Assembly (NCBI RefSeq): GCF_964204865.1
Contig: NC_135263.1
Coordinates: 2,852,001 to 2,916,000, forward strand
From: Styela clava
Taxonomy: Eukaryota
DNA: 64,000 bases
Reading direction: 5' to 3'
Shown here: piece by piece, positions 9,785-50,608 of the stretch
How positions within the stretch are numbered: position 1 is the first letter of the stretch
Layout of the letters: every line of letters starts with the position of its first letter
Made by a program: the position numbers and the translations under genes
Notes under the pieces: generated by a model
Told to the model about the DNA's origin: nothing
Databases searched by the model: none
The model's input: only the letters and a program-made list of their open reading frames with translations

Positions 9785-10290
9785 TTATTGCACTATTATT
9801 CGCACTTTTCACAGGAAAGACATTTGAAAAAGAAACAAAAAAATCGAGAAAAAATGAAAATCGAAACAAAAATCACCCTAAATAAAATAAATAGGAAACA
9901 CCAATCATTAAACTAAAGTTTATTGCACAACGGTTTGAAAAGTTTCCATTTTACTTGTTTTCTCACTGAAAAGAGATTAAATGGAAATAAAATATTCAGT
10001 TATAAGTATAAAACAACAATCAATAACAAAAGGTTATTGCACTACTGTTAAAATAAATTTTATTTACTAGTTTTCATACTGAAAAGACACTAAATTGAAA
10101 CAAAAACTATCATTTTTAAGTACAATAAATATAATCACTAATCAATAAACTAGCGATTATTGGATTACTGTTTGGATAATTTTTATTAATCTCTTTTTCT
10201 TACTAGAAGAAATTTGAAAGGACTTTAAATTAAAAGGAAAATTATTACGTCCACATATAAAAACACAAATGATTGAACTAAAGGTTATTT
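9785..10290. repeat. Degenerate ~115-bp AT-rich tandem repeat downstream of gene A (related unit at ~8215-8360)
   Basis: Recurring ttattgcactactgtt...ttttcatactgaaaagac...aaactaaag units. Confidence 0.55.
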
Positions 10291-10496
10291 GTTGGTTGAT
10301 TTTCCAGGTTTCTCAAGACCAAATATAGTGAAAACGATTTTAGAAGAAATAATTTGGAGCAGCTAATTTGAGTGTGTTTGTTCAAGTATTGCTTTATTTG
10401 AAAAATACCACACAGTGGCACGTGTTAAAGTCAAGTCATTGGTATCATTACCAAACTAAGTTTCTTGTCAATTCTTTGTTTGTTTTGAGCGCTGTG

Positions 10497-13400
10497 TTAT
10501 AACAGGTCATTGTCGGTGTCGCTTTGTGGAGACCTATAAACGAATAGGGTGCAATTAGTATTGCCTTAGTTTAAAACACTCAATAAAATATTTTAATAGG
10601 ATTTTGAATTTTTTCCTATTTATATTTATAGTGTTTCAGTTATAGTATTTATTTATAGTGTTTCAAATAAAGTTTTGGAGCATTTTTGCAAACTTAAGCA
10701 TAGGGATTGAAAAAAAAACTTAAATAATGGCAATTTTTTTATATTCAGTGTCTGTATTTTTGCAAATGAATGGCTTATAAGCTATACCGGGTATACGACG
10801 CGTTTTAACGCCTTTTTCCGAACAACACTTATATTATTACTATTATTTGAATAAAAAAAAGTTCCCGGTTTGGCATTGCTTACTCAACTTAGTACACCTT
10901 TGGTGAGATGGTGGGCATAAAATTTAAACCTGTAATGTTTGATCTGCAATGCCAAATCGGTTGAATACAGCTGGGCCATCGCACCAAAGTCATTTTATTG
11001 AAAGATTTGATTACTGACAGATGCTGATATTGGTTTAATGAGCATTTTAAACTTGCAGATAATTATATTTACTTTTGAATTCAATTTATGCTTGTCTTCA
11101 TGATAATATGTATACTTTAGTAGGCCAATTTAATATTCAAAGTTATTCACCTGATCTCATGACGTGATTCATTTTCAGATGCTCTGCCATCAGAAACTAA
11201 AAAAAAGAAGAAGTTTATAAAAAAATTTATATAGTTTAAAAAACATAAAATTTACAAGAAATTGCCGGGGAAGAACCCAAGCAATCTGCAATTTTTTATG
11301 TCATAAAGTACAAAAACTAATACTAATGATACAGACGACACCATATGACGTAGCTTCAAATTGAGGAAAGTTGGACAAATTTTCCCCCTTCCCAAAGTTC
11401 CCAAATTTTTAAAAGCTGTTCGATAACCGACATTTGCTTGAGAAAGCAAGATATCAAAAGAGTAATTTCTATGCAGTAAAATCAAAGCGGTATCCCACCT
11501 ATATGTATTGTATTATTCAAGTCAAGTATTTTCTTATTGACCTACATATATATTACATTTTCATGGACATGGTTTACTCATGGACAAACAATATTCCAAT
11601 AGCAAATCTGCGATTTTTTTATGTTGAAAATTAACAAGAAGATAAGCCGTTTATTTTCTGGATGAAGCCCGAGAAAGATTCATTGAACATTGTTCATTGA
11701 CAAGTTTTAGGTACTTAGTAAAATTAATCATTCCAGGCCACAAATCAATTATGTGACCCGACAAAGTGTTATAGTAAAAATTTTATCATGTCTAATCTAA
11801 TCAATAAAAACTCGTGAAGTATTGAAACTGCACAGACGAGATGTACCTGACGTTCTTGGTGCTGTTTGGCCTCGTGGCGAATCACCGACATTTATTCCTC
11901 CACCACCAGAGACTGAAAAAGAGAAAAAAATTTGAGCAACCTATAATATTTGCACATTACACATATGATATAAAAAGATCGTTTATGAAAAGAAATGCTG
12001 AGAAGAAAAGAATAACTGATATGAAAAGAATAACTGAAATGCATAAACCAGTGGTTCTCGAACTTTAAGGATCTGTGACCCCCTTTTAATAACTCCTAAC
12101 ATTCGTGGTCCCTTGCTCTTCCATAAAACATACCTCTGTTTTGATAATACCTCGTTCACATGCGGTATTTTACACGCCATGTTTAATAATAATAATAAAA
12201 CTAACGTAATTAAATCACTGTATATCCAATCAGTCTTTTTTGTCCTTCAGTCTAATTTGCCTGAAGTATGAGGGCCGTGGGCGAATTTCGTTTTACTTGG
12301 TTGATCTGCTATAATGCTAATATTCATTTTCGATGAAGCATCAATAGCATCACCCATTTTCCCAGAGATATGATAAGACAAAGTTTGAATTAAGCCTTGT
12401 AAATATCGACTACTGTAACATTTGAGACATCAAAAATATTCACAAGAAATGATTGGAACTTACCGTGTCCGGTGTTCACGTTATTTGCATTGAAATTCTG
12501 GATGTACACTACTGATCGTTGAGATTCTAGCAAAAGAATTGTAAGATTGAGATTTTACGATAATAGCACTAGACCTTGAAACAGAAATTACTATAAAAAA
12601 AATTTGTTTTCATTTATGTAGCTTACTATGCTGCTTACGAGCAGGGAAGGACACCCTTTGGTGCGAGGAGCGAGGCGGTCCCCCTCCCCAACAATTTCGT
12701 CTATATTTAAACATATATTGTTTCCTACTAACAAAACTATCATTATTCGGAAAATGGTTAATATGCTTCTGTGATAACTGTTGTTTACAATAATGTACAC
12801 GGCAGCACTATCGGAGAACCTCACATCTTTGTAAAAAGATGCGTGTCCGCAAGGGTAATACGTGGTCTTCAAATGCACCACCAATGCCGTATAGCCGCCG
12901 TCTACGTTACGCCATTATTATTTTTACACGTTATGAACGAAGAAATATTTTAATGTTCATCACGTTGCCAAATTAACTCAACAGTGGTATTGCCGAAAGA
13001 AGCAAACAAAATGTATCTCATTACAACAATTAACTAATAACTCTGAATAATATATTAGGTGTAAAATTGTTTCGAACATGTATAACCGATTGACGTATCT
13101 TTTCCCGTTATGAATTTCATGTAAAGCCGAGAATTATTTGACGGCAGACATCACCGCCCACTACTATATCGTAGCGTTGTTTTTCATTAATGAAGTCGAA
13201 ACACTTATTAGAATTGGATTTTCAGAAACTAAAATATTATCGTTTTGGTGCTTGAGATGTGAAATAGTCGACAGTTCCACGCATTTCATTGAGTGCAATT
13301 TACTAAATTTAATAAAGGTCCTAATGAGATGCGTTGCAGCAGTGTTACAAGGACCGGGCGTTTCACTGGAATACTGGCGTGATTACAGAACTCTAGAGGT

Positions 13401-16400
13401 GGGCTAAAACAAATATTTTATCGACCTGGATAATATTTCTATCGAATACCGAATATTCTTAATATATAATGGACCTTTCCCCGACCTTTGACACCCGGCT
13501 AATTCTTCCTATAATTTACCATTGCAACATTTTCGGGGCTATTTTAAGAGTGCTTCTGCGAGTTGGCGCCTGTAAAATGGGGTATGTGTTACAAACCATC
13601 ATTATGATTCATCGCATACAACAATATTTTTTTTAAAAGTACCGGTAAAGAATTTCAGGCTAGTCTAGGAAGACAGAGTGATCATTGAATTATCTGATTT
13701 ATATTCAAGTTTCCGAAACACAACTGAAAACTAACGAATAGAGTTCAAAAACGCGAAAACGAGGTAATGTTTACAACCACACTTGAAAATCTGTCTGAGT
13801 GAGAAAAGTGTCTGAGCAGATGCGAAAAGGGGGCATTGTTACGTCACTTTTTGCATCTTGCTGATTGGCCAATGTCACGAAGTAAACAAGGAAAACGATG
13901 CTCGGGGAAAGGTCCAGAACGTTAGCCATCATAATGGGTACTTCTGTAGTATGCGAACCAAGATGGCGGACACCGGAATGTAGTATGTGTACCAGGTTAG
14001 GCCATAATTGTATTCCCGTAGAATGCATCGGCTTTGATCTTCCCTATCACCGTTTGTGAATTAACCGTCCGAATTTTAAGCGAACGATCTCATCTTCACT
14101 GACACCAAAATACGGATATTTATGCAATCGATAGTCAACTTATAGTTTACTTTTCTGCAGTGTCTTTTTTTTTTATTTCTCTTTTGAAAAATAGCCAAAA
14201 TTGCGTAAAATATTTTTTTATCTTATTTGACATTTTTAAATCCTTAAATTTAACTCCTTAAATTTGTCGTTTCTGTATGTTAGCAGGCTCGCCCCTGCTA
14301 ACGAGTACATGCTTATCCTATTTTACACTATACTACATACTAGCAGAATTTTTCATCGGTAACATTGATTAGGTACTTTGAATTATGAGCAACGTAGCAG
14401 AATTGGTAAAAGGTAGAAAAATGGAAATAAATGTATTTTATTTTTCAGACTTACCCGAAAAACGATTTAGGTGGTTTTCAGCTGTTTGTGGTATTGCTTC
14501 TTGAGACGGCGTTAGTTGAGTTCCCGAAGAAGTGTTTGGTGGATGTTCAAAGCAACGGGGATGAGGAGGGTCTGAGGTAAAACGTATTATTGAACGTTTC
14601 TATTTTATTAGATTAAAAACTTGCTCTTGTAGTCGGAATCAAAGCGGTAAACTGCTATATTTTATATCGTAATGGAATGTTCAATCAATCCTAGATCTCG
14701 AAGCTGCAAAACAGCCCCAAACATCAAACAAATCTTGTCGACATTTACTTATTGTTTGAAAAATAACATTGACCCCCACGATCTTCGCGTGCAACATATC
14801 TTAAAAGATCGAAAAAGAATTGTAATATGGGTTAGATTGGTAAATAGGTAATTTTATGACTGCAATAATTTAAGTGGGGCCCTGGACGCAATGGTTTTGT
14901 GAGACCCAACGCTGCGGCCTAAGTATGTTTGTTCATTTTCTCGTCCCGAGTCCCAGTCACACAAAGGCCATCCCAATATTAGATTTTGGAGGATTAATAT
15001 GGTACCAAACGCATGCTTGTAAAGAGCCTTGTTTAAAAACACAAACAATTTTCAATATACTCAGAACGATTCTATTTCATCCATATCACATGGCGGCCTA
15101 TAACATAACCTACGCATCAGACCAAACTGTGTCCCAATAAACTGGGCAGGCAATGTAGAGCCAGAAAGATTCCGCTCCTACCGAACTGTAGTAGCTCATT
15201 ACTTACCAGTGGATACTGGTATGTTCAGACCAACGTTCATAGGGGAAGGTGTAAAGAATTAATGCAAGTTTATTATATTTCGAAATTTTAGGTCAGGAAA
15301 GAATAGCCCCTGGATATAATGGTAGATATGTAGTAAATTTAAATCTAATATGAGTTGAAATTACTACTCACTGTTTTCTGCAACTCCATCAATTTCTTTG
15401 TCTGCCTTGTTCTCCAGAGGGTTAGCGCCGACTATAAAATATAATATATCATATGTTTTCATTTTGCAATTAAAGGTTTGTATGATAAATGATGATATAT
15501 AAACAAATAATGCGATTTTATTCAAAAATGTATTTTTCCTGCTTTGTTTGGAATAGAATATGGAGTTTCAATTGAAAAAAATGCAATGTGAAAAAAATTG
15601 TAACTATTTTTACCCGATGCCATTATAATTCTATTTTTATAATATTAGATGATCAACATTTTCATATGTAAATATTTTCTCCAAAGAGATATTTTTGGGT
15701 TTTTGTTTCAATAAAATAATGCATTCCAAGTGAATAAAAAATGGAGTGTGAAAAAATGCTATAACCTTATTTGAATTATTTATTTGAATATTCACTGATA
15801 ATACAGACTATGTCTAATAAGCATATTTTACCCACCTCCAATCCGTGTTTCGAACATATCGGTAATTTCATCAACTTCAAGATTAGTTTTCTGACGCTTT
15901 TCAGCAGTTGCAGTCTGAAAATATAGTAAATCTGTTCTAAGTTGATAGATTTGCGTATATGAGAGTTTTTTGTCATAAAAACGTAATAACATTTTTCTTC
16001 ATTAAGTTAAGAGAACTATTTGGGCAAATAACTCACACTTTCAGTTTCAGCACGCCGATTTCGGCTCCTTTTGCTTCCAGGTTTCACTAGTTGCCAGGCC
16101 ATACCTACATTCAACTTAACGACTTCTTGGGTAAAACTGGTTTTTGTCCTTGTATCGCTATTGAAAAGGTGTTCGATTGTATTTTTGAACATGAGCTGGA
16201 AAAAACATTGGTTTGTCAGCCAATCGCATGTGGATGAACTTTTAAACTATTTGGTTGTGAATTAATCAGAGGAATAAAACACAAAAATAATTAAATTTGA
16301 TTCAAACTTACAAAATGAAAGCTAACTAATTTTGCCACTGTTTACTGAATTTCAAAGCGGTCAATAATTGGAAGAATATAACAGTCTGGTTTCGTCTCTC

Positions 16401-18663
16401 GTGGTGTATTTGATTTCATAACAGAAATGATTGTTTGCTTAGTCAGAAAATTTCTAACAACTAAAATATACCTTTATTTGCCATGCAAAATTATAGTACA
16501 GCCAACATAGACTAAAGCGAGCATTCGTTCGAACCAGGCAGAGGTTTCAGTTTTGCAATTATATAAAGTCTTTTTTTTCCATTTCGAACTATCCATATTG
16601 TTTTAATATCTAACAGTCAGAATAAAGCAAAGCGATCTCATCGGTGCGAGGATATACCTCTAGCTACTTCAGTTACTTACCTCAAAGTGACTGCATTTTG
16701 TCACGTCGATGTCTCCAACGAACGAGAACCATTCAATTTGCAAATTTCTCTTATACTGAAACATAAAACATATAGGTAATATTTCATTTTAAATGGCGGT
16801 TTGTGAGCAACGTATAGAATAGACAACAGGCACTATTCACTAGACATTTAAAACCCAACTGCTGGATTGAAGACCGGCGTTTAACATTGTACGCATTTAT
16901 TAGTTTCAGCAAATTGCTCGACAATGTAAATAATAAAATAGAAAACACTTTGGTATTGTTATCTTACAAATATCCAATATCTACGAGAAAAATTCTGTTG
17001 TTCTAATCACATCGTTTTGACGAGTGCGCGGCAAAAAGCGTTTAAATCATGAGCTATCGTTGGTATATATTTCAAAATAACCGTAAGTCAGGTTAAAGTA
17101 CAATCGTGTGACATTTTAGGCGTTGATTATCTTACTATGGATTATCACTGAATTTAGTTCACAAGCTACACCAGAAACATTCATAGATCACATACTACAC
17201 CAGTACATAAAATTGTTTCCACCTTGCTAGTGACTAATTGTAACAAATCGCAAAATATAGGATACGTTTTGCTTACCCATTTATTTCCTTTTTCTGCTGC
17301 TTTTTTCAGAGTTTTATAATTTTCTTCAGTGAGTGATGCTTCTTCCGTTCTTTTGCAGTTCGACATATTAAAGTGCTTCTCTATTTTTCTTTTCCTCAAA
17401 ATTTCTGCAATGTATTCTAGCAAATGTTCATTCAAAACCGCGCCACTTAAGTTTAGTGTTTGCAATTCCAACTAAAAAATGAAATTGTAAAGATCAGCAT
17501 TTGGAGTTTCAGTTGACGGTTTTGAAGAAAATTGGGAAACAACGCTTCTTGGAATGACAAAATTAGAAATTAAATTTGATTCTCGGTTTGTTTGCTAATT
17601 TGCCAAAATGTTATCTTGGGTGATCTTGCTTAACAATAAAAGCAGATCTACAACTAATAGAAATATATCATATTAAAAATAGCCTTGTTTGGGTGTCTTT
17701 TGAGTGATAAAATTTTTTCGATCCCTCAAGTACTCTCGCTTATTAAAGAATCCTAGTGCTATTTTCACGACAGCTGTGGCGCAGACTGCTTCAATCCACG
17801 TGTCATAGACATAGTGTCCGTAAAACAGGTGATTTTTGGGGCATCAGTGGTATCTTGCGAAAATAGTATTAAATATTATTGGTAGGCCAAAGAAGCAAAC
17901 AGATTGTAACTACTACTTGAGCGAACTATTTGAAAAATTTATTATTTCTTAAAATTGTATTAGTTTAATCGACTTACGTCTTCAGTTTTATTAATTACTT
18001 CTAACAACCTTTCGGCGTTCACGGCATCCATGTCGTCGGGGAATACAAGCGAACGCACGATACCGCTATACATGAGTTCAATCAGGACTAAAATACATTC
18101 ATCGTCGTACTTGTTCCAGTGCAAATTTAGATGAATTTTCTGAACCAAAATTCATTGCGTATTCACTCAAGAAGAAACTAAGACTTGATACATTGAGTTT
18201 TGAAAAACATTCAGTTATATATTATTAGCACGGTTTTACAGCTTATGACAGCGTGGCCCAATACAAAATTCAATTATGTTTCCATATTGCCATTAAATTC
18301 TTGCGGGAGATGAGATTTACTCGAAATGAACTAAACCGCGGATTGCATTTATTTATTTGAAAATATGATGTAAAAAACATCAGAATATTATCAGAAATAT
18401 AAAAAAAACATTACCTTAGAAACTTTATTTCTTCTTAGTACTTCAAGTACTTCACTCGTGTCCTTGGCCATCGAAAAGCACCCAATTAAAATTATTTGCT
18501 CTAATTTTGATTCACTAATAACCGATTTTAATTTTTCCAACCCATTTGGTGGCGGGGCATGCTGGAGATGAATGATACGGCCGCATTGTGAAGGAATGAA
18601 AATTGTCATCAACTCTTCCCAGCTGAATACGTTTTGAACTTTTGAGCGTTTCAAAAACGGCAT
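10497..18663 (-). CDS. Gene A: 12-exon ~435-aa protein with N-terminal RI-like leucine-rich repeats, low-complexity linker and C-terminal RHIM-like motifs
   Basis: Exons 18663-18415, 18139-17978, 17471-17277, 16755-16681, 16195-16037, 15914-15836, 15431-15372, 14571-14455, 12526-12464, 11912-11847, 11196-11151, 10533-10497. All introns are GT-AG and phase-compatible, giving 1308 nt with no internal stop. There is an in-frame stop upstream of the ATG and AATAAA ~100 nt after the stop. LRR-like strings: IHLNLHWNKYDDECILVLIELM and LQTLNLSGAVLNEHLLEYIAEIL. Confidence 0.8.
12780..13330 (-). pseudogene. Degraded LINE apurinic-endonuclease fragment in an intron of gene A
   Basis: Remnant motifs DIVVGGDV (GDFN box), VT*TAATALVVHL (TRVT..ATLIDH) and DVRFSDSAAVY (SDH box), with stops. 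Confidence 0.45.
13470..13916. mobile_element. ~450-bp MITE with 15-bp TIR TGGACCTTTCCCCGA
   Basis: Perfect TIR at 13470-13484 / 13902-13916. Second diverged copy at 44332-44808. Confidence 0.8.
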
Positions 18664-21450
18664 TTTTTTCTAAATAACTAAATAACACTTTTATATGATG
18701 TTTTCAAAATCTGCAATAAAAAGGAAAAAAAGTAATCAATTGAAATAAATCAATAAAATAATGAACTAAAACATCAAACGTTTCGTACACGTTGTAATAC
18801 ATCTCTATGATATGTACGTTAAGAAAGTGTATAATTTAAAACTCAGGTCAGGTATAGAATTGTTCCCAACTGCGCCTTTCATTGAGCATTAATTATATTG
18901 GGGGTGCTGATGGATTTGAAAATTTCTGGACTTTACTTTGTCATTTGTCTTTCTAAATCAAAACCTAAATTTCAAATTCTCAATACTGAACTATAATTGG
19001 CCCACCAGAAGTATTCGTACCAATGCGGGGATCAGTAAGGCAAAGTATCCTATGGGAAAATTCCCCGGTAAAAATACTATGGGAGCACCCGTAAAATTTG
19101 ACACATCTTCACTGCATGAACATGACTAGCATAATAAGTGTTTAGTTACAACTAATGCTCTCTGTATTTTACAATTTACATCATTCAATATATATTCATG
19201 CTCTTGCATGAATATATATCTCGATATAAATCTAGGGTCCCAATACCCCATATACATAAGACCTGATTTGACACCGAAGCATTACCAATGCTACACCTAG
19301 GGCAATATTCGGGGAAGTACCGGGTTGTAACTCGAAGGACAGTTTCGGTAGTCAAAAAAAAATCAAAAGACTATTAGGTAATCACGTTTACAGCATACTG
19401 CCCAAAACATGATTTGAAATGTATGTGTATCGTATGTGGATATGGAATAACATTGGTCTTTTCACTCCATAATTGCAATTTTAATCCCCGCATAGGCAAT
19501 TCACATCGATTCACATTTTGAGATATATATTTCATACAAATATATTGCTCCAAATTTTATCATAAATCATTCCAAAACGGGAATAAATTGTTCGTCAAAA
19601 ATTGTTAATTAATGATCACAAAAATAATATTAAAATACTCGAATAAAGCCCGCCAAATATTCCAACTTTTCAGTGACCCAGTACACATGAAGCTATTTTA
19701 TAAAGAAACAAGCAAATGATAATTAGCGGATGTTCTGGACTTTGGACAAAATCGTTGAGGTTACTGTGGTTTTATCCGTGAGTAACCCGAAATTTGACAA
19801 ACGTGGCGTGATATTGTGTTTAATCTAGAACAAACAAAAACTGCGACACTATTATAAAAATGATTATCTTACTAACATCTCATTGTATTAATGAAATTCA
19901 TACCAGCAGAATAAATGATTGCATAAGACACACAACTCTTTATGCGTATGAAAAGTTCCTTTGTTTGAAATTATGGTGTGAATCACAATATGACAAATAT
20001 ATAAAAATTGTATGTATCCTCGTTATTGAAAACCCAAAACAACTTAAGTAAAAGGATTTCTATTTAAATTTCCATGACGGTTTCACACATATATCAATTG
20101 GTTGTAATTCTTTAAATAATCTTATCAGATACTTTCTGTCTTAACATTTAGCTATGGCGCAAACCAATATAAATATTTCCATTCACGGGAAACGAGCAAT
20201 TGGTGTTGCATAGGCATGGCGACGATGTGCCGGGTAAAAAGTTTGCAAAATATGAGCAGTATTTGGATCACTTATGAGTTTTACCGACTGCGGCAAGGTT
20301 TTCTCGAAAATTTTTGCGGCCCTTTAATCTTTCAATCTTGGACCACCCTTGCATAGAATATATATATATATATAGTACGCCTGAAATTTAAATATTTACT
20401 AAATTACTACACAATTTTTTATCAAAAGTCCAAACATTCCACACAAAATATAACAAAAAGTTTGCCGTATCACAAAGTTTCTCTAGCACGCTGTTAATTA
20501 AAACGCAATGACTTCTCAACTTCTGTTAAATCTTTTGGCTTCTATCTTCACAACTAAAAGCATGAAAATACCTATTCAGCTTCAATAAAAACATTTAAAA
20601 TTACTGAACCGAAATTTAGAATTTTTACCTGATATAGACAAACAATGATACCAAATCCCAATGTCGAAAAATTATTATCTGTGATGTATAAACGCCTTCA
20701 CCCCAAACAAATAACATAACAAGCAGCCATACTATTTACGGGAGACCAAATCGTACAGCTAAATGAAACATTATTTTTGGTCACCGCTAAACATTTTTGA
20801 ATATATCTGTTATTCGATCGCATCATTTCCGTTGTATTCATTATTGACCAACACTTCTTCTTGTTTTCAATATTTTTTTAAAGTAATCCCAGTTGTTGTC
20901 AATATATTTGCTAAAGTCAATCGACTCCTAGCTGCTCTCGTATTTGTGTGAATAAATCTTTACTAGTGCACCACGTGCTATTATCTATGATTTATGCTTG
21001 AATGTATTCCCCCCAAATCCGACACCAACTATTTACAAAACACTATAATGCTTGTTACTACAGTATTATATGGAACTAAACATACTCATTTGAAGCAGAG
21101 GATTTAAAGCTAAGCAAACATTTGCATTGTAGCATAGAGCCGATTGATTTTATTACGTAGGCGTCGCCTCACTTCTCAATACTGTGTCTAGTATTGCGAA
21201 AATGAATGAAAAAACATGTGACATGTTATATCATACGTCATTTGGTCACTACGCGGTTATCTCTTTTATGTCTTTTATCAATTACCACAACTGTCAGCTT
21301 ATTCACTCTGTTATAATATGTTTGTAAAAAGATTGTATTAGTATATACTGCTAGATCAATTTGTAGTTTATTATTGTAGTGCGTGTCATTTTTTTTACTT
21401 ATCACAGTGCACATTTTCACCAGCATATGATATACATCGGTGAATTGGCT

Positions 21451-21679
21451 GTACCCCCGTAGTATCAAGATGGGGGCCACCGGAACGTAGAATGTGTACC
21501 AGGTTAGAGGTAGGCCATAATTTTATTCTAATTTTTCTTATTTTGATTCTATTACGAGTTTGAGGACTAGCCGAGTGACTCCCGTAGTATTTGTACCTGA
21601 AATTATGGCCTAACCCTAACCTGGTACACATACTACGCTCCGGTGTCCGCCATCTTGGTTCACATACTGCGGAAGTACC
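21451..21679. mobile_element. Foldback MITE (~230 bp, long TIRs containing GGTTAGGGTTAGG and CAAGATGGCGG)
   Basis: Arms gtac(c/t)cccgtagtatgtgaaccaagatggcggacaccggaacgtagtatgtgtaccaggttaggg and their reverse complement. At least 9 full or partial copies in the window. Confidence 0.85.
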
Positions 21680-24146
21680 GAATTGGCAGCTGTAAAGTTC
21701 AAGCCAGTACTCAAATCAATCTATCCTTCCAACGAAAACTTTAGGTTTAAGTTTGTTATGTTAATATATATAAATGGACTTGCGGATATAAGGACATTAT
21801 GATACAGGTGTGGAAGGTCAAACATTATCATATCTGCATAAAATAATATACATTTTACTGCATTTCTTGGCGAGCGAGATGTCGATTTGATGTCTTAATA
21901 CTTCTCTTTCAATTCTGACTACCCAAACTGTCCTTCGATTTAAAACCCGGTATGATCAGTTCGCAAATATGGCTAGCACGAGTGGCAAATATATCTTCAA
22001 AATATTCTTATATCTGACCACCATAAAGTGTTAAAAACGAAATGAAAACTTGCCTTTCCATTATGTTCAACAGTTCCCAACGCAACTAAATTTAATGATT
22101 GTAGAATAACTTGTGTTTAATATCCTCGGCCATGTTGGTAATATAATTGATATCAATATTTTTGCAATAAAAACTAAAATATACTGCAACACATGACTAT
22201 GTATGATCTAAGGTTCAGTTATCAATTACTCATCTTTTCATTCTACAAGAATAAATATGTATACTAAACTGTGGCATATATTTTCTACATAAAAAAGCAT
22301 AAACGCTTAAAAATGGTAAGGTACAACTGATGATCCTTTTATTTTACATCATTAAATATACATTCAGGCTCTTGCATGAACCTAAATTTCAATAAATATC
22401 TAGAGTCCACAAATCTATCTGAACGTGAGACCTGATTGGAAGCCGAGGTAGTATTTGACAATGTTGCACCAAGGACGATATTCGGTAAAGTACCGGGTTG
22501 TAATTCGAAGGTAAGTTTTGATAGTCAGAATTACGACATACTGCCCAAGAAATGAAGTGTATTGTGTTTATTGTATGTGGATATGAAATCATGTTAGGCT
22601 TTCTACGCCAGTGTTACGATTTTATCACCGTATCTCGATTCACATTTTTGGGATTACTTTACAAAAATATAATGCTAGAAATTAGGTATTTCAGTTACGC
22701 AAGTCCATTTTGCAGTCTCAGTTTTTAGAACAGTTTAAGATCTTATCAAAAATGGAAAAAATGTGCGGCAAAGCATTGTTGACAATCAATATAATAATGC
22801 ATCAATATATTCAAAATACTGGAATAAAGTTCATCAATTATTCCACTTTTTCAGTGACTACACACACATAAAGCTGTTTTACAGCGGAAAAAGCTAAAAC
22901 GGGGTCTGCCACAACTCAATTATTGAAAAATCTTAGCAGATATTTTCAGATTTAACAATTGCCGATTGCACTAACACATATAGATATTTATATTTACATG
23001 AAATGAAAAATTTTATGGCATTTGCATTTTTAGCGATAATAACAACGACGATTTCTGTCCAATGCAATGCAGATTATTTCCAATAGATTAGCGTAGTTCT
23101 CGCATAACCTTCTTTTCTCAGGGCTCAGATAGATTTCACTCTAGGTATTTTCAAGAAACAAAACATCACATTGTTTTGTGACCAATGCATCGTGTGAAAA
23201 GCCGCACCAAATGCGTTCGCAAAAAATGATCAGATATTGAGTGCGTTTTATATTTATTTTATCAGTTATTCAGTCATCTCATTACAGGATAAACTACGCT
23301 TATAACTTTAAGGTTTACGAAATTACTCACAATATTTTATCAAGTGTGCAAACATTCAACACAGGAGGACTTTTCTGTATTACACTACATCTTTAATATA
23401 TATAGTAAAAAATGATTGGTAAAACGTAATGCTTTTCAAACTTCTGTGAGAAATTTTGACTTCAATTATTACAATAATACTCCAGCTTTTAAAAAAAATG
23501 CTAAACTGCAAAACCCTGATTTAAGATGTAGAATGTTTACTTTGTGTATCTTTGTGTTGCAAGTTACCTTTCAAAAGAAGAGACTAAGATACTACCCACT
23601 TTACTCTATTTTGGAAGCTGGATTTCTGCTTTACACAGATTATTTAGGATTTTTACGTGGGGAACAATTGTACAAAAAAAGCGCTATATGGGAGTATTTA
23701 ATATATAATGTTAACTACATTCATTATTAGAGCTTCGTTCAAAGCTCCAACGTACTAATTATATAAAGTAAGAACGTAATAATTGCGTGCCGAATCGCGG
23801 AAGAATTTACGTCGTCTACTGTCGGATCTAAAAGGCTTTAACTGTCGCCACCACTCAATTACCACAAATCTTGGACAAATACACTTTGATGGGTATGATA
23901 TTTGATGGAATATTTCTCTGGCTTCGATGAAATCATGCAAACCCCTACTCCGAAACACTGGATCAAGCTTTGGAATTGTTACTCAATATAGCCATGAGCA
24001 ACGATACCGAATGCCGATTATGACTTATTTTTATATGTGATGTCTTACACGATGTCATCTCAAACAAGTCGCTAAACAAACAGCCACTGGTGAATAATGG
24101 AATGCTAATGGAATACCATCATATCCTCTGTATCTATTAAAAACTG

Positions 24147-24381
24147 GGTACTCACGAGGTATGTGAACCAAGATAGCGACACCGGAACGTAGTATGTGTA
24201 CCAGGTTAGGGTTGGGCCATAATTTCAGGTACAAATACTACGGGAGTCACTTGGCTAGTCCCCGAACTCGTAATAGAACTAAAATGAGAAAAATTGGAAT
24301 AAAATTATGGCCTAATCTAGTACGCATATTACGTTCTCGTTCTGCTGCCCGCCATCTTGGTTCACATACTTCGGGAGTACC
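24147..24381. mobile_element. Foldback MITE, same family
   Basis: As 21451-21679, in opposite orientation. Confidence 0.85.
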
Positions 24382-26398
24382 GAAACTGAAAGTTCTTCTC
24401 GTAATGATCTCAACTTGCTTCTTATTATTTTGCTAAAGTCAGCTAACATATAGGTGCTCTAGTCTCTGCATGGAAATGCAATTTGCTAGCATAATGGTAC
24501 TCCCGTAGTGTGTGTACCAGGTTAGGGTTAAACTATAATTTTATTCCTATTTTACCTATTTTAGTTCTATTTCGGAGGCAGTCTGTTTAGCCAAGTGAAT
24601 AAACCCCTGCCCATAGGTTTCAGTCCCTTTACACAACTTGATGTAATGTAAGCGAACAAAATTAATTACTTCCATATTGGCACACACACTTCTGGAGTGC
24701 CAGCATGTTACCCATACCTGAGCTCTATAAAACAATTTCTATCCCCCAAAATCCTTCATATTCAACTGCTTACAAGAATTTGAAGAAGAGGAAGTAGAAC
24801 TGAACAAACATTTTACCTTATAGCATTGAGCCAATCAAAATCAATTTAAGCATTGACGTAGGTGATGCTGATTCAGCGAGTCTGGCAGTTGTATGCGAAA
24901 GCTCATGTATGATAATCTGTTAGCGAACAGGCTATCGTGCATGGTTGATATATTTTTCTAATAACTTTCCTGCTTTTCGCTATGTTTTGGTTGAACAAAT
25001 CCTTACATGCCAATCAGTTTACGCAATTAACCCAGTCTTGCCCCTCTTCATGAACACTTTCTGTACGGTCATTTAAATTTATACCCATCAACCACTTGGC
25101 CCCAAAACTTTAGTCGTGGCCTCCTCGAAGCGTATGCTAGAATTCTATTAGCCGAAATGACGCTAAAGAGCACTTATCCAATGATTTTAAATATGCAATG
25201 ATTCTTACTACTAACGCTTAACCTTGTTTTTGTGTCTAGTAAAGCGTCAAGCACTAACTATAACTGATTATTTTTAACTTGAGCGTTTTCAATTTTTTTG
25301 AACTAAACAATACCACAACAATAGAGTAAAATGGTTACCGAGAAATTCCCAATAGCATTGCAGAATTTACAAACTTAACAATTCAGTTGGCAATTTTGAT
25401 GTCGTCACGCTCTAATTATTACTGCACAAAAGCTTTGTAATGCCAGAAAAGCAATCACTTTCTATGATAGTAGGCGCGACAATGCAATGTGCGTCGTTAC
25501 AGCTAAGTTCTATTCCCACAATTTTACCGCCCAACTCACCATGCATGCACGCCAAGCATGGCCGAGTGAAACTCACAAATCCTAAAACATTACGGGGCCA
25601 AAGATGAATAAATATATGCTTAGCTAATACAAAGTTATTAGAAGGGAGTTATTGGCTGCCATTCCTTATATGGATTATAAGTGATTATACAAGTTTTTCA
25701 ATATTATGACTCACAACCTTCAAGTCTGATGCTGTTCTTACAACTGCCATATTCGAACGACTTAAAACTGACTTGCTCGCTTATTACAATTTCTTTATAA
25801 CGTCATTTAAACTCCTAATATACGATAACAATATTTGTGTTCGATGGCCTTGTCTCATATGTTCGCGTCAAAAACTTGTTAATGTGGATCTCAACATTGA
25901 TTCAAAATGCACTTTAGCGTCATGTAAACGTATTATACGTGGTGAATCACGATTAAGCGTAAAACTTAATAATAGAGAATATAAAGCATGCAATTCACAA
26001 TTTCTCCTGTAACAATTTATCTGTTTTTAAAAGGATAATTATCTGGTTTTTCTGTCATAGCTTTCCGCACTGACAATTCCAATTTCCTCATACCTTCCAT
26101 ATTTTATCCATATTCCATATTTTATCAATACTGTGTCTAGTATTGCGAAAATGAATGAAAAACATGTGAGATGTTATATCATACGTCATTTGGTCACTAC
26201 GCGGTTATCTCTCTTATGTCTTTTCTCAATTACCACAACTGTCAGCTTATTCACTCTGTTATAATATGTTTGTAAAAAGATTGTATTAGTATATACTGCT
26301 AGATCAATTTGTAGTTTATTATTGTAGTGTGTGTCATTTTTTTTATTTATCCCAGTACACATTTTCACCAGCATATGATATACATCGATGCATTGGCT

Positions 26399-26633
26399 GT
26401 ACCCCCGTAGTATGTGAACCAAGATGGGAGCCACCGGAACGTAGTATGTGTACCAGGTTGAAGGTAGGCCATAATTTTATCCTAATTTTTCTTATTTTGA
26501 TTCTATTACGAGTTTGAGGACTAGCCGAGTGACTCCCGTAGTATTTGTACCTGAAATTATGGCCTAACCCTAACCTGGTACACATACTACGCTCCGGTGT
26601 CCGCCATCTTGGTTCACGTACTGCGGAAGTACC
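26399..26633. mobile_element. Foldback MITE, same family (duplicated copy of 21451)
   Basis: Long TIRs as above. Confidence 0.85.
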
Positions 26634-29600
26634 GCATTGGCAGCTGTAAAGTTCAAGCCAGTACTCAAATCAATATATCCTTCCAACGAAAACTTTAGGT
26701 TTAAGTTTGTTATGTTAATATATATAAATGGACTTGCGGATATAAGGACATTATGATACAGGTGTGGAAGGCCAAACATTATCATATCTGCATAAAATAA
26801 TATACATTTTACTGCATTTCTTGGCGAGCGAGATGTCGATTTGATGTCTTAATACTTCTCTTTCAATTCTGACTACCCAAACTGTCCTTCGATTTAAACC
26901 CGGTATGATCAGTTCGCAAATATGGCTAGCACGAGTGGCAAATATATCTTCAAAATATTCTTATATCTGACCACCATAAAATGTTTTATAAACGAAATGA
27001 AAACTTGCCTTTCCATTATGTTCAACAGTTCCCAACGCAACTAAATTTAATGATTGTAGAATAACTTGTGTTTAATATCCTCGGCCATGTTGGTAATATA
27101 ATTGATATCAATATTTTTGGAATAAAAACTAAAATATACTGCAACACATGACTATGTATGATCTATGGTTCAGTTATCAATTACTCATCTTTTCATTCTA
27201 CAAGAATAAATATGTATACTAAACTGTGGCATATATTTTCTACATAAACACGACAAGCATTAATGATCCTTTTATTTTACATCATTAAATATACATTCAG
27301 GCTCTTGCATGAACCTAAATTTCAATAAATATCTAGAGTCCACAAATCTATCTGAACGTGAGACCTGATTGGAAGCCGAGGTAGTATTTGACAATGTTGC
27401 ACCAAGGACGATATTCGGTGAAGTACCGGGTTGTAATTCGAAGGTAAGTTTTGGTAGTCAGAATTACGACATACTGCCCAAGAAATGAAGTGTAATGTGT
27501 TTATTGTATGTGGATATGAAATCATGTTAGGCTTTCTACGCTAGCGTTACGATTTTATCCCCGTATCTCGATTCACATTTTTGGGATTACTTCACAAAAA
27601 TATAATGCTAGAAATTAGGTATTTCAGTCACGCAATTCCATTTTGCAGTCTCAGTTTTTAGATCAGTTTAAGATCTTATCAAAAATGGAAAAAATTTGCG
27701 GCAAAGCATTGTTGACAATCAATATAATGGTGCATCAATATGTTCAAAATACTGGAATAAAGTTCATCAAATATTCCACTTTTCCAGTGACTACACACAC
27801 ATAACGCTGTTTTACAGCGGAACAAGCTAAAACGGAGTCTGACACATCTCGGTTAAGGAAAAATCTTAGCAGATATATTCAGATTTAATATTTGGCGATT
27901 GCACTAACACATATAGATATTTATATTTACATAAAATGTAAAATGTTATGGCATTTGCATTTTTAGCGATAATACCAACGACGATTTCTGTCTAAATCAA
28001 TGCAGATTATTTCCAATAGATTAGCGTAGTTTTCGCATAACCTTCTTTTCTCAGGGCTCAGATAGATTTCACTCTAGATATTTTCAAGAAACAAAACATC
28101 ACATTGTTTCGTGACCGCTGTATCGTGTGAAAAGCCGCACCAAATGCGTTCGCCAAAAATGATCAGATATTGAGTGCGTTTTATATTTATTTTATCAGTT
28201 ATTCAGTCATCTCATTACAGGATAAACTACGCTTATAACTTTAAGGTTTACGAAATTACTCACAATATTTTATCAAGTGTGCAAACATTCAACACGGGAG
28301 GACTTTTCTGTATTACACTACATCTTTAATATATATAGTAAAAAATGATTGGTAAAACGTAATGCTTTTCAAACTTCTGTGGGAAATTTTGACTTCAATT
28401 ATTACAATAATACTCCAGCTTTTTAAAAAAATGCTAAACTGCAAAACCCTGATTTAAGATGTAGAATGGTTACTTTGTGTATCTTTGTGTTGCAAGTTAC
28501 CTTTCAAAAGAAGAGACTAAGATACTACCCACTTTACTCTATTTTGGAAGCTGGATTTCTGCTTTACACAGATTATTTAGGATTTTTACGTGGGGAACAA
28601 TTGTACAAAAAAAGCGATATAGGGGAGTATTTAATATATAATGTTAACTACATTCATTATTAGAGCTTCGTTCAAAGCTCCAACGTACTAATTATATAAA
28701 GTAAGAACGTAATAATTGCGTGCCGAATCGCGGAAGAATTTACGTCGTCTACTGTCGGATCTAAAAGGCTTTAACTGTCGCCACCACTCAATTACCACAA
28801 ATCTTGGACAAATACACTTTGATGGGCGTCTGTAAAGACCAGGACTGGTAGCGCTATAATCTCCGTTCAGCGAATATATACAGTATGGAAGCGAAATAGA
28901 AAGCCTTGCTGGCATAATTTAGCCAACTCAAAAGTTAATCAAGCTGCTGAAAAGCTGCTAACGTACCAATTGAAAAGTTTCTGCGTACTACAGGTTGAAA
29001 ACCACTGCGTAAATAAATGAACAATTGTAATAGCATGGGCATCGAGTTTGTCAACGTTCATATCGTTATGTTCAACTATGATCGACATTTAAATGCGCGT
29101 CAGTTTGATATAAATGAGTTGAATGAGTCTGAATTTTTATAAATTATTTTTATCAATAACGACAACGCCGATATCTGTCCTATACAAAGTAGATCATTTT
29201 TAATAGATTCGCGTAGTTATCGCACAAACAACTTTTTTGATGTTTACCTGATTACTACAAAAGGTTTTATCAAGTGTCAAACATTCAATACAGAAGATCA
29301 ATACAAAATCTTTTCTGTATTACATTGCCTCTCTAAAGACTGTTAAAAACGCATAGTAAAACGTAATACCTTTTTAACCTATGTAGAAACTTCTGACTTG
29401 AAAATCATATATACATACGGGGTATATACAGATAGTCCCCGAACTCGTAATATAACTAGAATAAGGAAAATCTGAATAAAATTATGGCCTAACCGTAACC
29501 TGGTACACATACTACGGCAGTACCCTGGATTGATCTTTGAAATGGTTACTTGACATAGCCATGCAATGATACCGAATGGCGATTTTGGCTTATTTTTATA

Positions 29601-41382: not shown

Positions 41383-44000
41383 TTTTTTTTTTTTTTTGTA
41401 TATATTTATTAATATATAAAACACAGTTGATCGGTACATCTACAACATTATTAATCACTAATCATGAACAATACACAATTCATCATATAAGATAATCAGT
41501 AATTGTATCATCAAATTTTCCATTTTTGATCATGTTTCTTTATTTTGCCATTTTTATATGCAATAATCCGTTCAATTTCCCTCACTTCATACAGATATGA
41601 GGTAAAAACATTAAAAAGCGGTTTCTTTTTCTGTATCTTACAACGATATAGATAAAACCGGGCAGCAAGAAGTATACAGTTACACAATTTGTTATAAAAA
41701 TTACAAACATATCCCAACATGCAGTCTCTCTTCGAAAAGTTAAAATTAATCCCTGTTTTTGAGTATATCCACATGTTTAGAGTTTCCCAAAACTGTTGAA
41801 CAACTATACAATCATAGAAAAGGTGGCTGATAGTTTCAACATTGGAATGACAGCATTCACATGACTCTGATGGAACAAGTTTAAATTTGTACAATCTATC
41901 GTTTAGTACTATAGCACCATGGAACATTTTTACATGAAAAGATTGCAATTTGGTTTTAATAGTACAATAAAAGATATCCATATACAATTTATTCCAATTA
42001 AAATCACTCTCTAAAATAATAAAATCTGCCCATTTTTTTCTTGATTTATCAGGGGATATAAATTTGATCAAGTTCAACCATTCATAGATACTTTTATTTA
42101 CTTTTTCTGATTCGAATGTTTCAGAAATAAAATGAGATACATTCTCTTCAGGGTCACTTAATACACTAAAATCAATACAGTTTCCAATATTGCATAACCA
42201 ATCGTCAGGTAAAACTCCAGTGATGCGATAATAATTTACATACTCTACATCACTATATTGCATGTCATATTTTTCAGTCAACTCTCTATAAGTAAACAGA
42301 ATACCCGCATTTGATAAGTGTCTTACTGCTTTTATACCATGTTCATACCAAGATTTGATAAAAAATTGTTTTCTAGCATAAGAAATACTTTTGTTGTACC
42401 ATATAGGTTGGTCAAAAATTGACATTTTCCAATCAAAAAGCACATTTTTACAGAAATACCAGTTTTTAAATACATTTCGAATGGACGTTAAAGGTAAATG
42501 CTTCAGAACATATGAATTTGAGCTCAATTTTCCTTCAAGCATTGCTTGAAAACAGTATTGGCCAAGCACTTCCATCTCAATCAATTTCCACACTGGGTTA
42601 AGATCCTCATTTAAAAGTGTTTGAATGTATTTCATTTTCTGGGCAACAATGAAATTTTTTATATCTATCATATTAATACCCCCTTTTTCTTTGGGGCCAA
42701 TCAAGGTATTTCGTTTGATCCGCTCCCAAGTTGAACCCCATACTAATACATATATAGTTCCATTCAATTCAGTTAAAAAACTTTCAGGAACATCAATTGG
42801 TAAAACAGTTGCATGATATATTATCTGGGGTAGAATGAGAGACTTAATAATGCAAATCCTCCCCAAAAAAGTCAAATTTCTTGTTTTCCACACCTGGAGT
42901 AGCTTTTTGACTTTGTCTAATATTTGTGGAAAATTTTTGCTGTATATACCCTTCATTTTGTTTGACAGAATAACACCCAATATTTTAATTTTATCGTTCC
43001 AATTCAGAACATAATTACTACTAATCGGGGGGGGGGGGGGGGGGGGGGCGGGGTTCAACCTTAAAGCCAATATACATTGCTTGGCATTTTGCTATATTGA
43101 TTCTGCACCCAGATATAATTCCAAAAATATTTGCAGTATGAAAAAGGGCATCAATACTAGATTGTAATCCATTGGTTATTACAGTTACATCCTCAGCAAG
43201 CATAGAAATTTTCATAGAAATATTCCTCCATTTTATGGGTTCAATTTTGGGGTTTTGCCTGACCATGTTTGCAAAAATTTCGATTACTAATAAAAATGTA
43301 AGACAGCTGAAAGAGTCACCTTGCCTTAAGCCTCTATGGATTCCAAAATCATCTGAAATATGAGCATTATTTGTGACACAACACTTGATATCATTGTAAA
43401 GAATTTTAATCCATTTTATGAATTTAAGATCAAATCCAAATATATGAAGAATTTTGAACAAGAAATCCCATTTCACACTATCATACGCTTTTTGTATATC
43501 AAGAAAAATTAAAGCCCCAGGCAATGATTCAGCGACAGTTAGGTCAATTACATCACAAATCAGTCGAATATTATCCCCTATATTCCTCCCTTTAATAAAT
43601 CCAGTTTGATCAAGATCGACAATTTTGTTGATCACATTACTCATTTGGTTTGTTAATGTTTTACTCAATATTTTATAGTCCACGTTTAATAAAGTTATTG
43701 GGCGATAATTGCTTATACGATGTTCAGTTTGTCCTTTCTTAGGAAGAAGGGTTGTTACTCCCCTTTTTGTGTTTTGCTCAAAGTCCCTTTAACAAATGAG
43801 TGATTGTAGCTAGCCATCAGAAGATGTTTAATATCTTCCCAAAACACCTTATAAAACTCTGCTGGAAGACCATCAAGTCCGGGGGTTTTGTCAGATTTCA
43901 TGGATTTCAAAGCCTCGAAACAAGCGCCCTCTGAGATAACACCAGGACATAAGTCTCAAACTTCAGGTTCCATGTGTGGTATTCTGATCCCTTGCAATAT
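41383..44000 (-). mobile_element. 5'-truncated copy of the L1/Tx1-clade element at 56751-62184
   Basis: Poly-T at 41383-41397, 3'UTR and the C-terminal two thirds of ORF2 are colinear with the intact copy (roughly 90% identity by eye). Homology stops at ...gatcccttgcaatat (44000). Candidate TSD ACGGATTAT at 41368 and 44028. Confidence 0.95.
41511..43990 (-). pseudogene. Disrupted ORF2 (reverse transcriptase + zinc-binding domain) of the truncated L1/Tx1 copy
   Basis: Track ORFs 43021-43683 and 41511-43070 are two frames of one ORF2, split by a poly-C expansion. Catalytic LADD is changed to LAED, and there is another indel near 43765. Confidence 0.92.
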
Positions 44001-47724: not shown

Positions 47725-50608
47725 TTAATTTTTCTGAAATTGACAAACCATCCCATGGTTCAAAGTTTCGGGTTTGTTATTTACCATCCCTTGGTTGGAG
47801 AAAACTGGATCCCGGTTGAGTGCCAGATAGACATGTGTACTATCGATACGTCTACCTCCAAGGTACGGTAAATTCGGAAACCATCTGGTGTAAGCGTTAG
47901 CAGGAGTAGTCACATTGTTCTAAAAACAAATAATAATCCAGGTGTAATGAAGATTAACATCGTCGGTATGTATTGGGATTGGAAAACAAAAGCTGCAGTA
48001 AAAGAGCTCATTTTCTAGTGAAGATTCAACTGCGTTAGATGACCTCTACTGCCTTTTGTAACGCGGGAATCTCGTGAGTAAAATTCTTCTATATTTATAT
48101 ATTTTGTTGACACGAATTATGTTATGTTTAATGTGTAAGTATGCTTTACTCACACCCAATCATTATAACGCGCGCCATAGATTAAGCCAGCATTATGATA
48201 GAAGATTTATTATTAGCTTACGAATCAAGAGCCACAAGTTAAACAGCTAGCAACTAAAACAGCTAACAACTGAAATCAGATTTTAAATTTTTATGCATCA
48301 CCTTAAAGGTAAAACAACGCACTTCTGCAGAAGATAATGATACTAACCAGAGGTTCGATTTGCAATTTAATCCAGAAGAACATGTTTTGATCTGACGTCA
48401 TCTTTGATCGCAGCAGGTTTATTACATTATCGTACACTTCATCGTTTGCAATCGAAGCCAATGTTGAATTTCTTTCAAGACATTTTCCCTGGGCTTGGCC
48501 ATAGATGATCATTTCGAAGTCGTGAACTCCTGTCCAGTAGCAAATTGAATCGAACTGATATTTACAAGTTGGGTCGTCTGGATGAAAAATTAATAGTAAA
48601 AGTGTGAATAATGTAACATATAAAACTGATGAAGATTATAACATTAAAGTTGAGATAAGAGTTGGATACCCCAATATACAAAACAGAATTATATAAGAAA
48701 AGATAGAATGTCAAAGGTGTATGAAGACGTCATAGCAATAAATCGAAAGAGCAATATAAAGCAATACCTCTGACATCGACGCTTTTTCCGGTAGTAGACG
48801 CCTTCAAGATTGGTTCTTCCGTAGAATTCACAGCATTTTCTATGCTTGTATGCATAGTGTGTTGATTTCCAGCCATGACTATTGAGTTAGTCAATTGCAA
48901 ACCTTCAAATGAAGACGTAATTTGTTGCGTGGTGAGAGATCTTGCTTCTATTGCTTCATTTACTTGCAACTGACAAGCGACCCCATGAATCTCTTTTTGT
49001 GGAGACATGTTCGCCATTCCCTGCCCTGTAGAGGCCGGATCCCGGTTGATTACAAGGTATACATGTGTTTTATCTACGTTGTCTTTGCTTGTAGTAGGCC
49101 GATTTGGAAGCCACATTGTGTAAGCGTTCGCGGGAATTGTGTCGTCGGTCTAAAAAACAAACAATACTCATTGTTATGGTGAATGATGATGTCTCGAAGA
49201 GTCTCTTATTTTTGAACAAAAGAAAAACACTCAGTATCCAGTTGCAACATTTATACATGAATGCTACTTTTCCCGTATGTCACTTAATTATTTGGTAAAT
49301 AAGGCAAAACTGTGAGAAAATATATTTCAAATTAAATTGGGCCATTTATTTTCCAGTAAATTCGAATCAATGATTTTAAATTGAACTTCAATCTTTAAAT
49401 TGGTAATTTACACGTGGTGCAAGAATGAAAAACACTAACTGATCTGCAAATGTCTTGTCATCAATTTTAACGTCATCGCTCAGAAATATATTAATATATA
49501 CAGACAAGGGTGAATCCAACTACTCGAATGATTTTATATATAGTGTTGCGAAAATATAATGAAATTTAGTTCGAAAATGTTACTCGAAAAAAGTTGGTCG
49601 CCATATTCTTCTCATTTTTGAATGCCGATGTAAATTCTCAGAAAACATGTGTAACTAAAATCAATAAGACTAAGCTTTAAAGTTCGACGGGATATAGGCC
49701 AATATTCACCGAAGGATCTATTTGTAACTAAGTCCAGATTTGAACGTTTTCAACACGAGCCGGAATCTCTGATCGTATCATAGTTGTTATTATATTGTAA
49801 ACCTGACTGTTGGCAATGAGAGCCAATGCTGAATATTTTGAGTTGCACATTTTCATCGCTTCCTTGTAGTTTAAAGTTTGGGTAAGGTTAACTACTGTCC
49901 ATGTCCAGTAGCAAATTGATTTAAACTCGTATTCGAACTGTTGGTCTAGGAATGAAAAAGGCTATGAGTTTCATGGAAATATGACGTATGTGTTGGAAGT
50001 TGTATGATTACTGACAAACATAAGAATGATAGAATCTTCGAAATAATCAAATTCTTACCAGTCCTGATAGTGGTATCAAAACTTTTTGATCTGAAATGGC
50101 AAAAAGTTATCAATGTAGCTATATAAGATGACATTGCTTACTCGGGATTATAGTAGAGACAGCAGTGGTAATCGTGTCACTTGAGCTTTTAACTGTTGTT
50201 TGGATCTTGCTTGTTAAATTTTCATATGGTATTGATGTTGTTTCATTGCTTGGACGATTTATGGAAATGCCATAAGTAGTTGTAGGATTGTGTAAGTACA
50301 CGGTACCGTCGTCTCTATGCGTTTCATCGGTACTATTTAAGACAGTTTTATTATCCGTCAATTCAATTTCATCAGTGATGTTTTTTGTATTTGTGGCTGG
50401 GTTTGACATGTCTACTTTAATTGTTGGAGTGGCTGATATGGTCATCGTTGGATGGTTACTTTATTCTGAGTGGTAAAGGTTTGTGACTTTCCCACATGAA
50501 CACTTGATCTCGTAAACTTCTCAGGTGCCCTCGTCCCTTCCTGAATGCTAAAGCTCGGATTTTTTATCAGAATGGACGTCAATTTTTCTTCTAGTTGGAA
50601 CCTTAGGT
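47725..50608 (-). pseudogene. Gene B: Ser/Thr-rich mucin-like stalk plus two tandem C-type lectin domains, disabled
   Basis: GT-AG exons 50608-50059, 49945-49710, 49149-48768, 48577-48348 and 47919-47725. CTLD hallmarks: CYW..Y..A...C....LA.I...(F/I)W, then PANAYT.W.P and G..CQ. In-frame TAG at 49730-49728 in CTLD1 and frameshifts in the stalk exon. 5' exons not found. Confidence 0.8.

Follow-up and report, generated by a model that had tools for sequence, protein, structure and literature searches.

The closest described systems are the RHIMs of RIPK1, RIPK3, ZBP1 and TRIF (PF12721), which are short, proline-free, beta-prone segments within disorder, with a core defined as (V/I)-Q-(V/I/L/C)-G (PMC9444067, PMC13506858). 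The cryptic RHIM of the insect proteins PGRP-LC, PGRP-LE and Imd needs just VxxG (PMC13506858). The fly protein Pirk/Rudra, with a C-terminal RHIM-like motif and half-motif repeats, acts as a brake (PMC4262963). In the fungal pairs (NWD2/HET-S, HRAM and PP), the N-terminal motif of an NLR (NOD-like receptor) is matched by a C-terminal motif in a second protein, and HET-s-type motifs are C-terminal pseudo-repeats of about 21 residues (PMC7889193). Whether the RHIM is the sole signalling amyloid of animals is given as an open question in PMC7889193. As for tunicates, it is stated that they appear to lack RHIMs (PMC4262963), that RIPK1 was not found in them (PMC12119088), and that ascidian NLRs are described without an N-terminal effector domain (PMC11508797). 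We analysed a window of 64,000 nucleotides from the sea squirt Styela clava (contig NC_135263.1, positions 2,852,001 to 2,916,000). It contains the gene LOC120340399, which encodes a leucine-rich repeat (LRR) protein with a conserved segment in its tail, free of proline and built of asparagine, glycine and valine. We tentatively read this segment as a short stacking motif (beta-arch, amyloid-type) distinct from the canonical RHIM.

The motif consists of two units. Motif A (residues 372-385, window 12468-12509) has the core VNTG at 12468-12479, while motif B (residues 387-398, window 11878-11912) has the core INVG at 11884-11895. We observed that the 27 residues of the motif hold no proline, one charged residue and 12 asparagines or glycines, whereas the remaining 102 tail residues hold 11 prolines and 26 charged residues. 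The motif is compositionally distinct from the rest of the tail. The peptide singled out in an earlier note on this DNA corresponds to residues 366-398, and the motif ends 37 residues short of the C-terminus.

To compare the motif with its surroundings we used the paralog P0004, which is 64% identical and is the only family member with an alignable tail. The motif is identical at 22 of 26 positions, with proportions of nonsynonymous (pN) and synonymous (pS) differences of 0.067 and 0.32. The rest of the tail is identical at 56 of 103 positions (pN 0.26, pS 0.30). Fisher's test of the difference gave p=0.0035 (with borders set after the alignment had been viewed), and a border-free scan from residue 327 picked the motif as the best 26-residue window (p=0.037). 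The linker of exon 8 is near neutral (pN 0.27, pS 0.29). The comparison of motif with linker that the earlier note had asked for thus favours the motif with this close paralog; measured against a single alignable paralog, the conservation appears moderate.

The gene runs on the minus strand from an ATG at 18663 to a stop codon at 10497, and its 12 coding exons encode 435 residues:

Exon 1, 18415..18663, minus strand: residues 1-83, with the start codon and the first LRR units
Exon 2, 17978..18139, minus strand: residues 84-137, two LRR units
Exon 3, 17277..17471, minus strand: residues 138-202, the final LRR units and a capping helix
Exon 4, 16681..16755, minus strand: residues 203-227, where an invariant WF closes the solenoid (from joints and alignment)
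Exon 5, 16037..16195, minus strand: residues 228-280, a low-confidence beta hairpin and the first half of a bipartite segment like a nuclear localization signal (NLS)
Exon 6, 15836..15914, minus strand: residues 281-307, the rest of the NLS-like segment with its second basic cluster, then an amphipathic helix that is retained throughout the gene cluster
Exon 7, 15372..15431, minus strand: residues 307-326, phase 1-1, the 20-residue most conserved tail segment
Exon 8, 14455..14571, minus strand: residues 327-365, phase 1-1, the polar linker
Exon 9, 12464..12526, minus strand: 63 nucleotides, phase 1-1, motif A
Exon 10, 11847..11912, minus strand: 66 nucleotides, phase 1-1, motif B
Exon 11, 11151..11196, minus strand: residues 409-424, phase 1-2, beyond the span of the earlier note
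Exon 12, coding part with the stop codon, 10497..10533, minus strand: residues 424-435

A search with exon 1 returned LOC120340399 of Styela clava at 100% identity, and the RefSeq protein XP_039264578.2 (P0003 in our numbering) mapped exactly, with 12 exons and GT-AG borders. The earlier note had described phase-0 LRR-type exons followed by two spliced motif mini-exons, and both descriptions agree with this model. Exons 1-5 are in phase 0-0, with exons 1-4 encoding the LRR solenoid, and the two phase 1-1 motif exons (12526-12464 and 11912-11847) are joined in a contig. Its span of 11847..18663 located the gene correctly and ended too early, since two further exons follow (11196-11151 and 10533-10497). 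All 11 introns were bridged by transcript-type contigs, from runs that were taken as RNA by guess (no run was recorded as RNA). The joint of exons 1 and 2 (18139|18415) was present in three of four runs. A single contig of run X2 carried the joints 12464|11912 and 11847|11196, with both listed pieces free of mismatches, and neither joint was present in the DNA-type run X4. A divergent contig of run X1 is the sole source of the joint to exon 12. An X1 contig has 69 unmatched letters where exon 10 should be, so exon 10 is strongly variable between copies. We also observed a second divergent haplotype or copy of window 10249-12527, at equal depth in run X4. Upstream of exon 1, an in-frame stop lies two codons before the ATG, and a strong acceptor at -47 is read as marking a putative intron in the 5' untranslated region. 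Exon 2, which covers exactly two LRR repeats, is absent from the RefSeq isoform X2.

We further examined the fold of the N-terminal part. The structure predicted from the single sequence was poor (mean AlphaFold2 confidence score, pLDDT, 44.6), and a model based on an 11-sequence family alignment was used instead. This model showed about seven beta-alpha units across residues 7-210 at high confidence, with pLDDT of about 88-96 across most of residues 11-200. Residues 249-435 had pLDDT below 50, indicating disorder. In the fold search, CARMIL, RanGAP1, NLRP14, NLRP9, ribonuclease inhibitor (RI) and NLRP1 were tied at Z 15-16 (root-mean-square deviation 3.3-3.9 across about 190-210 residues, identity 11-18%), all with the same predicted solenoid of about seven units. 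The language-model neighbours of the protein were all LRR proteins (best 0.94), and the Pfam LRR_1 family matched exon 3 at an expectation value (E) of only 0.12. Residues 7-210 are therefore confidently predicted to form an RI-type LRR solenoid, which is what the earlier note had asked AlphaFold to decide. An NLR ancestry of this LRR is suggested but not shown, since NLRP1 ranks first both by Foldseek and by profile search (E=0.0025). Unlike the LRRs of NLRP proteins, this one is N-terminal and stands alone, with neither a NACHT domain nor a death fold.

The absence of NACHT, also claimed earlier, was supported by several observations. Pfam found no NACHT match in the protein, and no P-loop pattern was present in the three minus-strand frames of window 18664-64000. 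The upstream 45 kb of the window had no NACHT exon and no long frame except pieces of long interspersed elements (LINEs), while the NACHT exons of Styela sit in frames of 389-1018 residues. All eight mapped family members begin at the equivalent methionine, and in each of them an in-frame stop lies 2-26 codons before it. Upstream NACHT exons were ruled out by the lack of a P-loop and of long frames and by the stop before the start methionine.

When we compared the motif with the RHIM, we observed both likenesses and differences. It resembles the mammalian RHIM in its aliphatic-x-aliphatic-Gly core (INVG), in the asparagine and small residue at -4/-3 of unit A, and in being a short motif flanked by unstructured regions, as seen from the low pLDDT and the composition. 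It has two units, like ZBP1, and core B with its flanks (GINVGD) is close to GVQVGD of RIPK3 (PMC4262963). The mammalian motif differs in having Q where this one has N and in sitting on a kinase, Z-alpha or TIR protein rather than on an LRR. Mutational scanning of RIPK1 and RIPK3 defines four essential aliphatic positions, -8, -6, 0 and +2 (bioRxiv 10.64898/2026.02.19.706818). Unit A has two of these (I and V, with T at +2) and unit B three (V, I and V; the rows for B were read by hand). No core in this protein or in its paralog contains Q. Pfam RHIM PF12721 had no match at E<=10 with the exons or the whole protein, in searches where the HMMER filters discard weak matches. Two of 10 candidates in a RHIM scan of the genome gave matches, both elsewhere and under the cut-off. 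One near-canonical string, at C14:4570399 (core IQLG), was rejected as probably intronic (E=4.3, weak splice signals). The motif is by definition not a RHIM, as judged from its sequence, and the family membership proposed earlier was not upheld, either by the core or by the profile search. It may still work like a RHIM, as the analogy with cryptic RHIMs, which need only VxxG, and the survival of amyloid folds at 17% identity (PMC7889193) would suggest. The Q-less core VNTG fits the insect VxxG, a pattern too loose to assign membership, and the protein differs from the insect ones in having neither a PGRP nor a death domain.

We also evaluated the pseudo-repeats and the exon layout, on which the earlier note had relied. 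A HET-s-like spacing of the pseudo-repeats is not supported: the two cores (V382 and I393) are just 11 residues apart, unlike the 21-residue pseudo-repeats of HET-S. A core spacing of 22 residues occurs only in P0004, between duplicated exons; in this paralog the exon-10 unit is duplicated with its core kept (cores VNTG, MNVG and INVG). No HeLo/HELL effector domain was found by Pfam, and the folded domain is the LRR. Symmetric exons as a mark of the motif were ruled out. Six shared exons are followed in every mapped family member by a tail made wholly of phase 1-1 mini-exons, of which P0016 has as many as 16 in succession. The symmetric-exon argument therefore carries no weight.

The reading that we tentatively prefer, although we put it at rather less than even, is that the protein is an adaptor or brake of an NLR pathway and that its motif serves for stacking. 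With the neutral N/G/V segment, a stack of like copies, of paralogs or of NLR heads would grow by one or two rungs. Specificity would come from the predicted LRR, through binding of a partner or ligand. The protein would tune NLR signalling rather than execute it, because it has no enzymatic or death-fold output domain, comparable to Pirk in the fly Imd pathway. Recurrence of the segment bears on this. By eye, a similar strand-turn-strand N/G segment lies near the end of 6 of the 14 members, scattered over the family tree (2 more are unclear). In P0003, P0004, P0007 and P0017 its place is in the penultimate exon (phase 1-2) or immediately upstream of that exon. It also precedes the last exons of P0014, and it is present in exons predicted for the gene at C18:4.93 Mb.

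Several results weigh against this reading. The segment was not seen in the other 6 of the 14 members, among them the nearest sister, P0005. With the borders of the earlier note, the comparison with P0004 gave p=0.15 (against residue 307 onwards) or 0.025 (against residue 327 onwards), and when exon 7 was included it won the border-free scan. Among 12 distant tails, 3 of 66 pairwise alignments reached p<0.05, none of them on the motif, and the three tail pairs that did align on the motif gave p=0.13-0.25. There is no hydropathy island at the motif (p=0.8). An ad hoc beta/N/G score (p=0.002 for this protein) was circular and was not counted as evidence. Genome searches with three motif exons returned only their own genes and P0004, and no effector gene. 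Residues 360-405 had no usable language-model match. Neither the motif nor the NLR head repeat described below found anything in Pfam, among PDB sequences or by language model. The failure of the Pfam RHIM search belongs here as well, as does the NLS-like segment, which suggests the nucleus.

This segment is central to the first alternative, a nuclear LRR scaffold with ordinary short linear motifs in its tail, where the N/G/V segment would be added as a beta-strand to a folded partner without polymerisation. We consider this possible, on balance somewhat unlikely. PRAME and ANP32 are proteins of similar design. The bipartite NLS-like pattern after the LRR (residues 274-289 here) was present in 8 of the 11 proteins scanned. 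Conservation of the amphipathic helix and of exon 7 equals or exceeds that of the motif; exon 7 is identical to that of P0004 at 19 of 20 residues (pN 0.02, pS 0.46) and is more conserved than the LRR. The fold, moreover, ties equally with the non-immune LRRs of CARMIL and RanGAP1. However, the proline-free and charge-free N/G/V composition fits stacking better, as do the tandem duplication of a unit in P0004 and the likeness to NLR head repeats, and inspection by eye showed neither a BC-box nor any other ligase hallmark. We also observed that the NLS-like segment and the helix following it (window 15888-16057) are kept in most of the cluster on contig C18.

A second alternative, which we regard as unlikely, is that the motif reflects composition, as a by-product of N/G-rich mini-exons in a disordered tail that turns over fast, with the LRR alone acting, for example as a decoy. 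The conservation hangs on one paralog pair, with p from 0.004 to 0.15 depending on the borders, and the family-wide tests were not significant. Tail mini-exons duplicate and disappear freely among the members. The degenerate motif pattern is at chance level genome-wide (11 matches against 10 in the control), and none of the 11 resembled an exon of a signalling gene. However, motif A, identical to P0004 at 13 of 14 residues, has 1.0 nonsynonymous difference in 33 sites against 6 in 13 sites in the flank of the same exon, and distant members have the segment again at the corresponding place in the gene. Without stacking, the finding would reduce to a lineage-specific family of LRR-only genes, hitherto undescribed and modest in interest.

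Possible partners for the preferred stacking motif were sought among the NLRs of the same genome, which has at least 97 NACHT loci. A related head exon lies upstream in 7 of the 40 NACHT regions sampled (on contigs C3, C4, C8 and C14); these seven exons trained the profile, which found no further locus. When a matrix built from LRR tails only was run over 13,927 sense windows upstream of the 40 NACHT loci, the top window was an NLR head exon at 15.4 bits, against an antisense maximum of 9.5 bits among 9,210 windows. This exon and motif A agree at 6 of 9 residues (IQNIHAENV in the head, IQNFNANNV in the motif), a match found in 1 of 15,319 windows with 0.033 expected. It gave at least 150 exon matches (150 of the 213 candidates were scored), mostly of 99 nucleotides in phase 1-1 and in tandem arrays. 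The arrays contain up to dozens of such exons, each encoding a 33-residue repeat with an internal 8-residue Glu-rich unit, and they occupy the place where a death fold is normally expected. The head repeat had no match in Pfam or PDB. A NACHT-type frame follows the array in 5 of the 6 downstream flanks examined, and Pfam confirms the one that was scanned.

The forward test for the same motif at the NLR N-terminus was thus positive, and the reciprocal tests were weak. Starting from the NLR heads, one distant family member gave p=0.01. The remaining tests count against the link and hence against the preferred reading. The head-derived hidden Markov model gave p=0.10/0.21 with the LOC120340399 protein. 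The 8-residue head matrix picked motif A at p=0.43-0.47 (combined 0.14 over 12 tails), the 9-residue matrix picked another site, and the 10-residue matrix gave a combined 0.81. The matching NLR exon had already been seen by eye before the matrix test, and the head units are Glu-rich while the segment of LOC120340399 is neutral. The link between LRR tail and NLR head is a lead, not a result.

If the link holds, the arrangement would resemble the fungal pairs, with an NLR N-terminal motif and a C-terminal motif in a second protein. The Styela arrangement differs in that the NLRs have many repeats and the LRR partner one or two, in the lack of a HeLo-type effector, and in genes that are not adjacent. 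A tunicate-specific stacking system, in which NLR head arrays template the C-terminal motif of a separately expanded family of LRR-only proteins and these extend or cap the stack, is in our view improbable on present evidence. The same doubt attaches to its component claim that this NLR subfamily has, instead of a death fold, heads built of beta-solenoid-type 33-residue exon repeats. If true, the system would give chordates an equivalent of the amyloid signalling by fungal NLRs, within a lineage from which RHIMs are reported to be absent. The peptide of LOC120340399 and the 33-residue head repeat of the same genome make the question of further animal amyloids testable by seeding. LRR-only proteins and stacking motifs are already known kinds; their combination and this family were not found in print, in a search that left most subscription journals outside and returned no report of the family or of such a tunicate motif.

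Arrays of this type precede NLR genes at C1:31.35-31.39, C1:31.72-31.77, C1:24.46-24.48, C5:0.11-0.29 and C13:4.00-4.01 Mb. In a related NLR subfamily the head exons are repeated, measure 183-210 nucleotides and end in a single shorter one, and they too are of the beta-prone type.

A true RHIM joining a RIPK-type necrosome is very improbable. The register fits in part: in unit A the positions -4, -3, 0 and +3 are taken by N, a small residue, V and G, and in unit B the positions -6, 0, +2 and +3 by V, I, V and G. Against this stand the lack of the core Q in all units, a genome without a RHIM over the cut-off, and the reports on tunicates cited at the outset.

The family itself has at least 14 genes and was found only in Styela. 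Eleven members are on contig C18, ten of them within 2.41-3.31 Mb, and the others are on three further contigs; their LRRs are 22-72% identical to that of LOC120340399. In a search of 1.84 billion proteins, the ten matches at E<2e-5 were, one repetitive LRR protein aside, all from Styela by name, and no relative outside Styela was found below 1e-5. Beyond Styela there were weak vertebrate NLR-type matches only, among 12 proteins at E<=0.001.

Some members carry other features in their tails. P0007 and P0016 (C18:2.54 and 2.58 Mb) have repeated exons with the pattern aromatic-N/D-A/S-S-x-V-N/D-aliphatic. Judged by sequence, these could be further stacking units or motifs of the kind that we take to resemble LC3-interacting regions. 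The distant members P0014 (C2:24.63 Mb) and P0020 have a folded beta-rich domain after the linker. On the minus strand at C18:2399939-2408517, predicted exons encode two globular-looking frames and then a tail with a His run and the string N-x-x-N-VIIG. Its core, VIIG, is the most RHIM-like in the cluster, on a predicted exon model with no RNA check. These exons may be the end of the 2.418-Mb member or a separate gene. The extra domains of P0014, P0020 and the 2.40-Mb exons are ZU5/UPA-like by impression only; Pfam, PDB and pairwise tests gave this no support. Two intronless Death-NACHT-LRR frames of 1047 and 2501 residues lie at C5:1340137-1343277 and C5:5206814-5214316, and their LRRs weakly match a family member.

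Elsewhere in the window, a two-frame LINE-type element with long open frames lies on the plus strand at 56738-62027, and a broken LINE-type copy on the minus strand at 41511-43788. The upstream neighbour gene (48303-50460, minus strand) has two kinds of frame, one of them Thr/Ser-rich; we take these to be C-type-lectin-like and mucin-like. Upstream of LOC120340399, a non-coding segment of about 3 kb was seen by eye to occur twice, at about 21250-24300 and 26100-29300.

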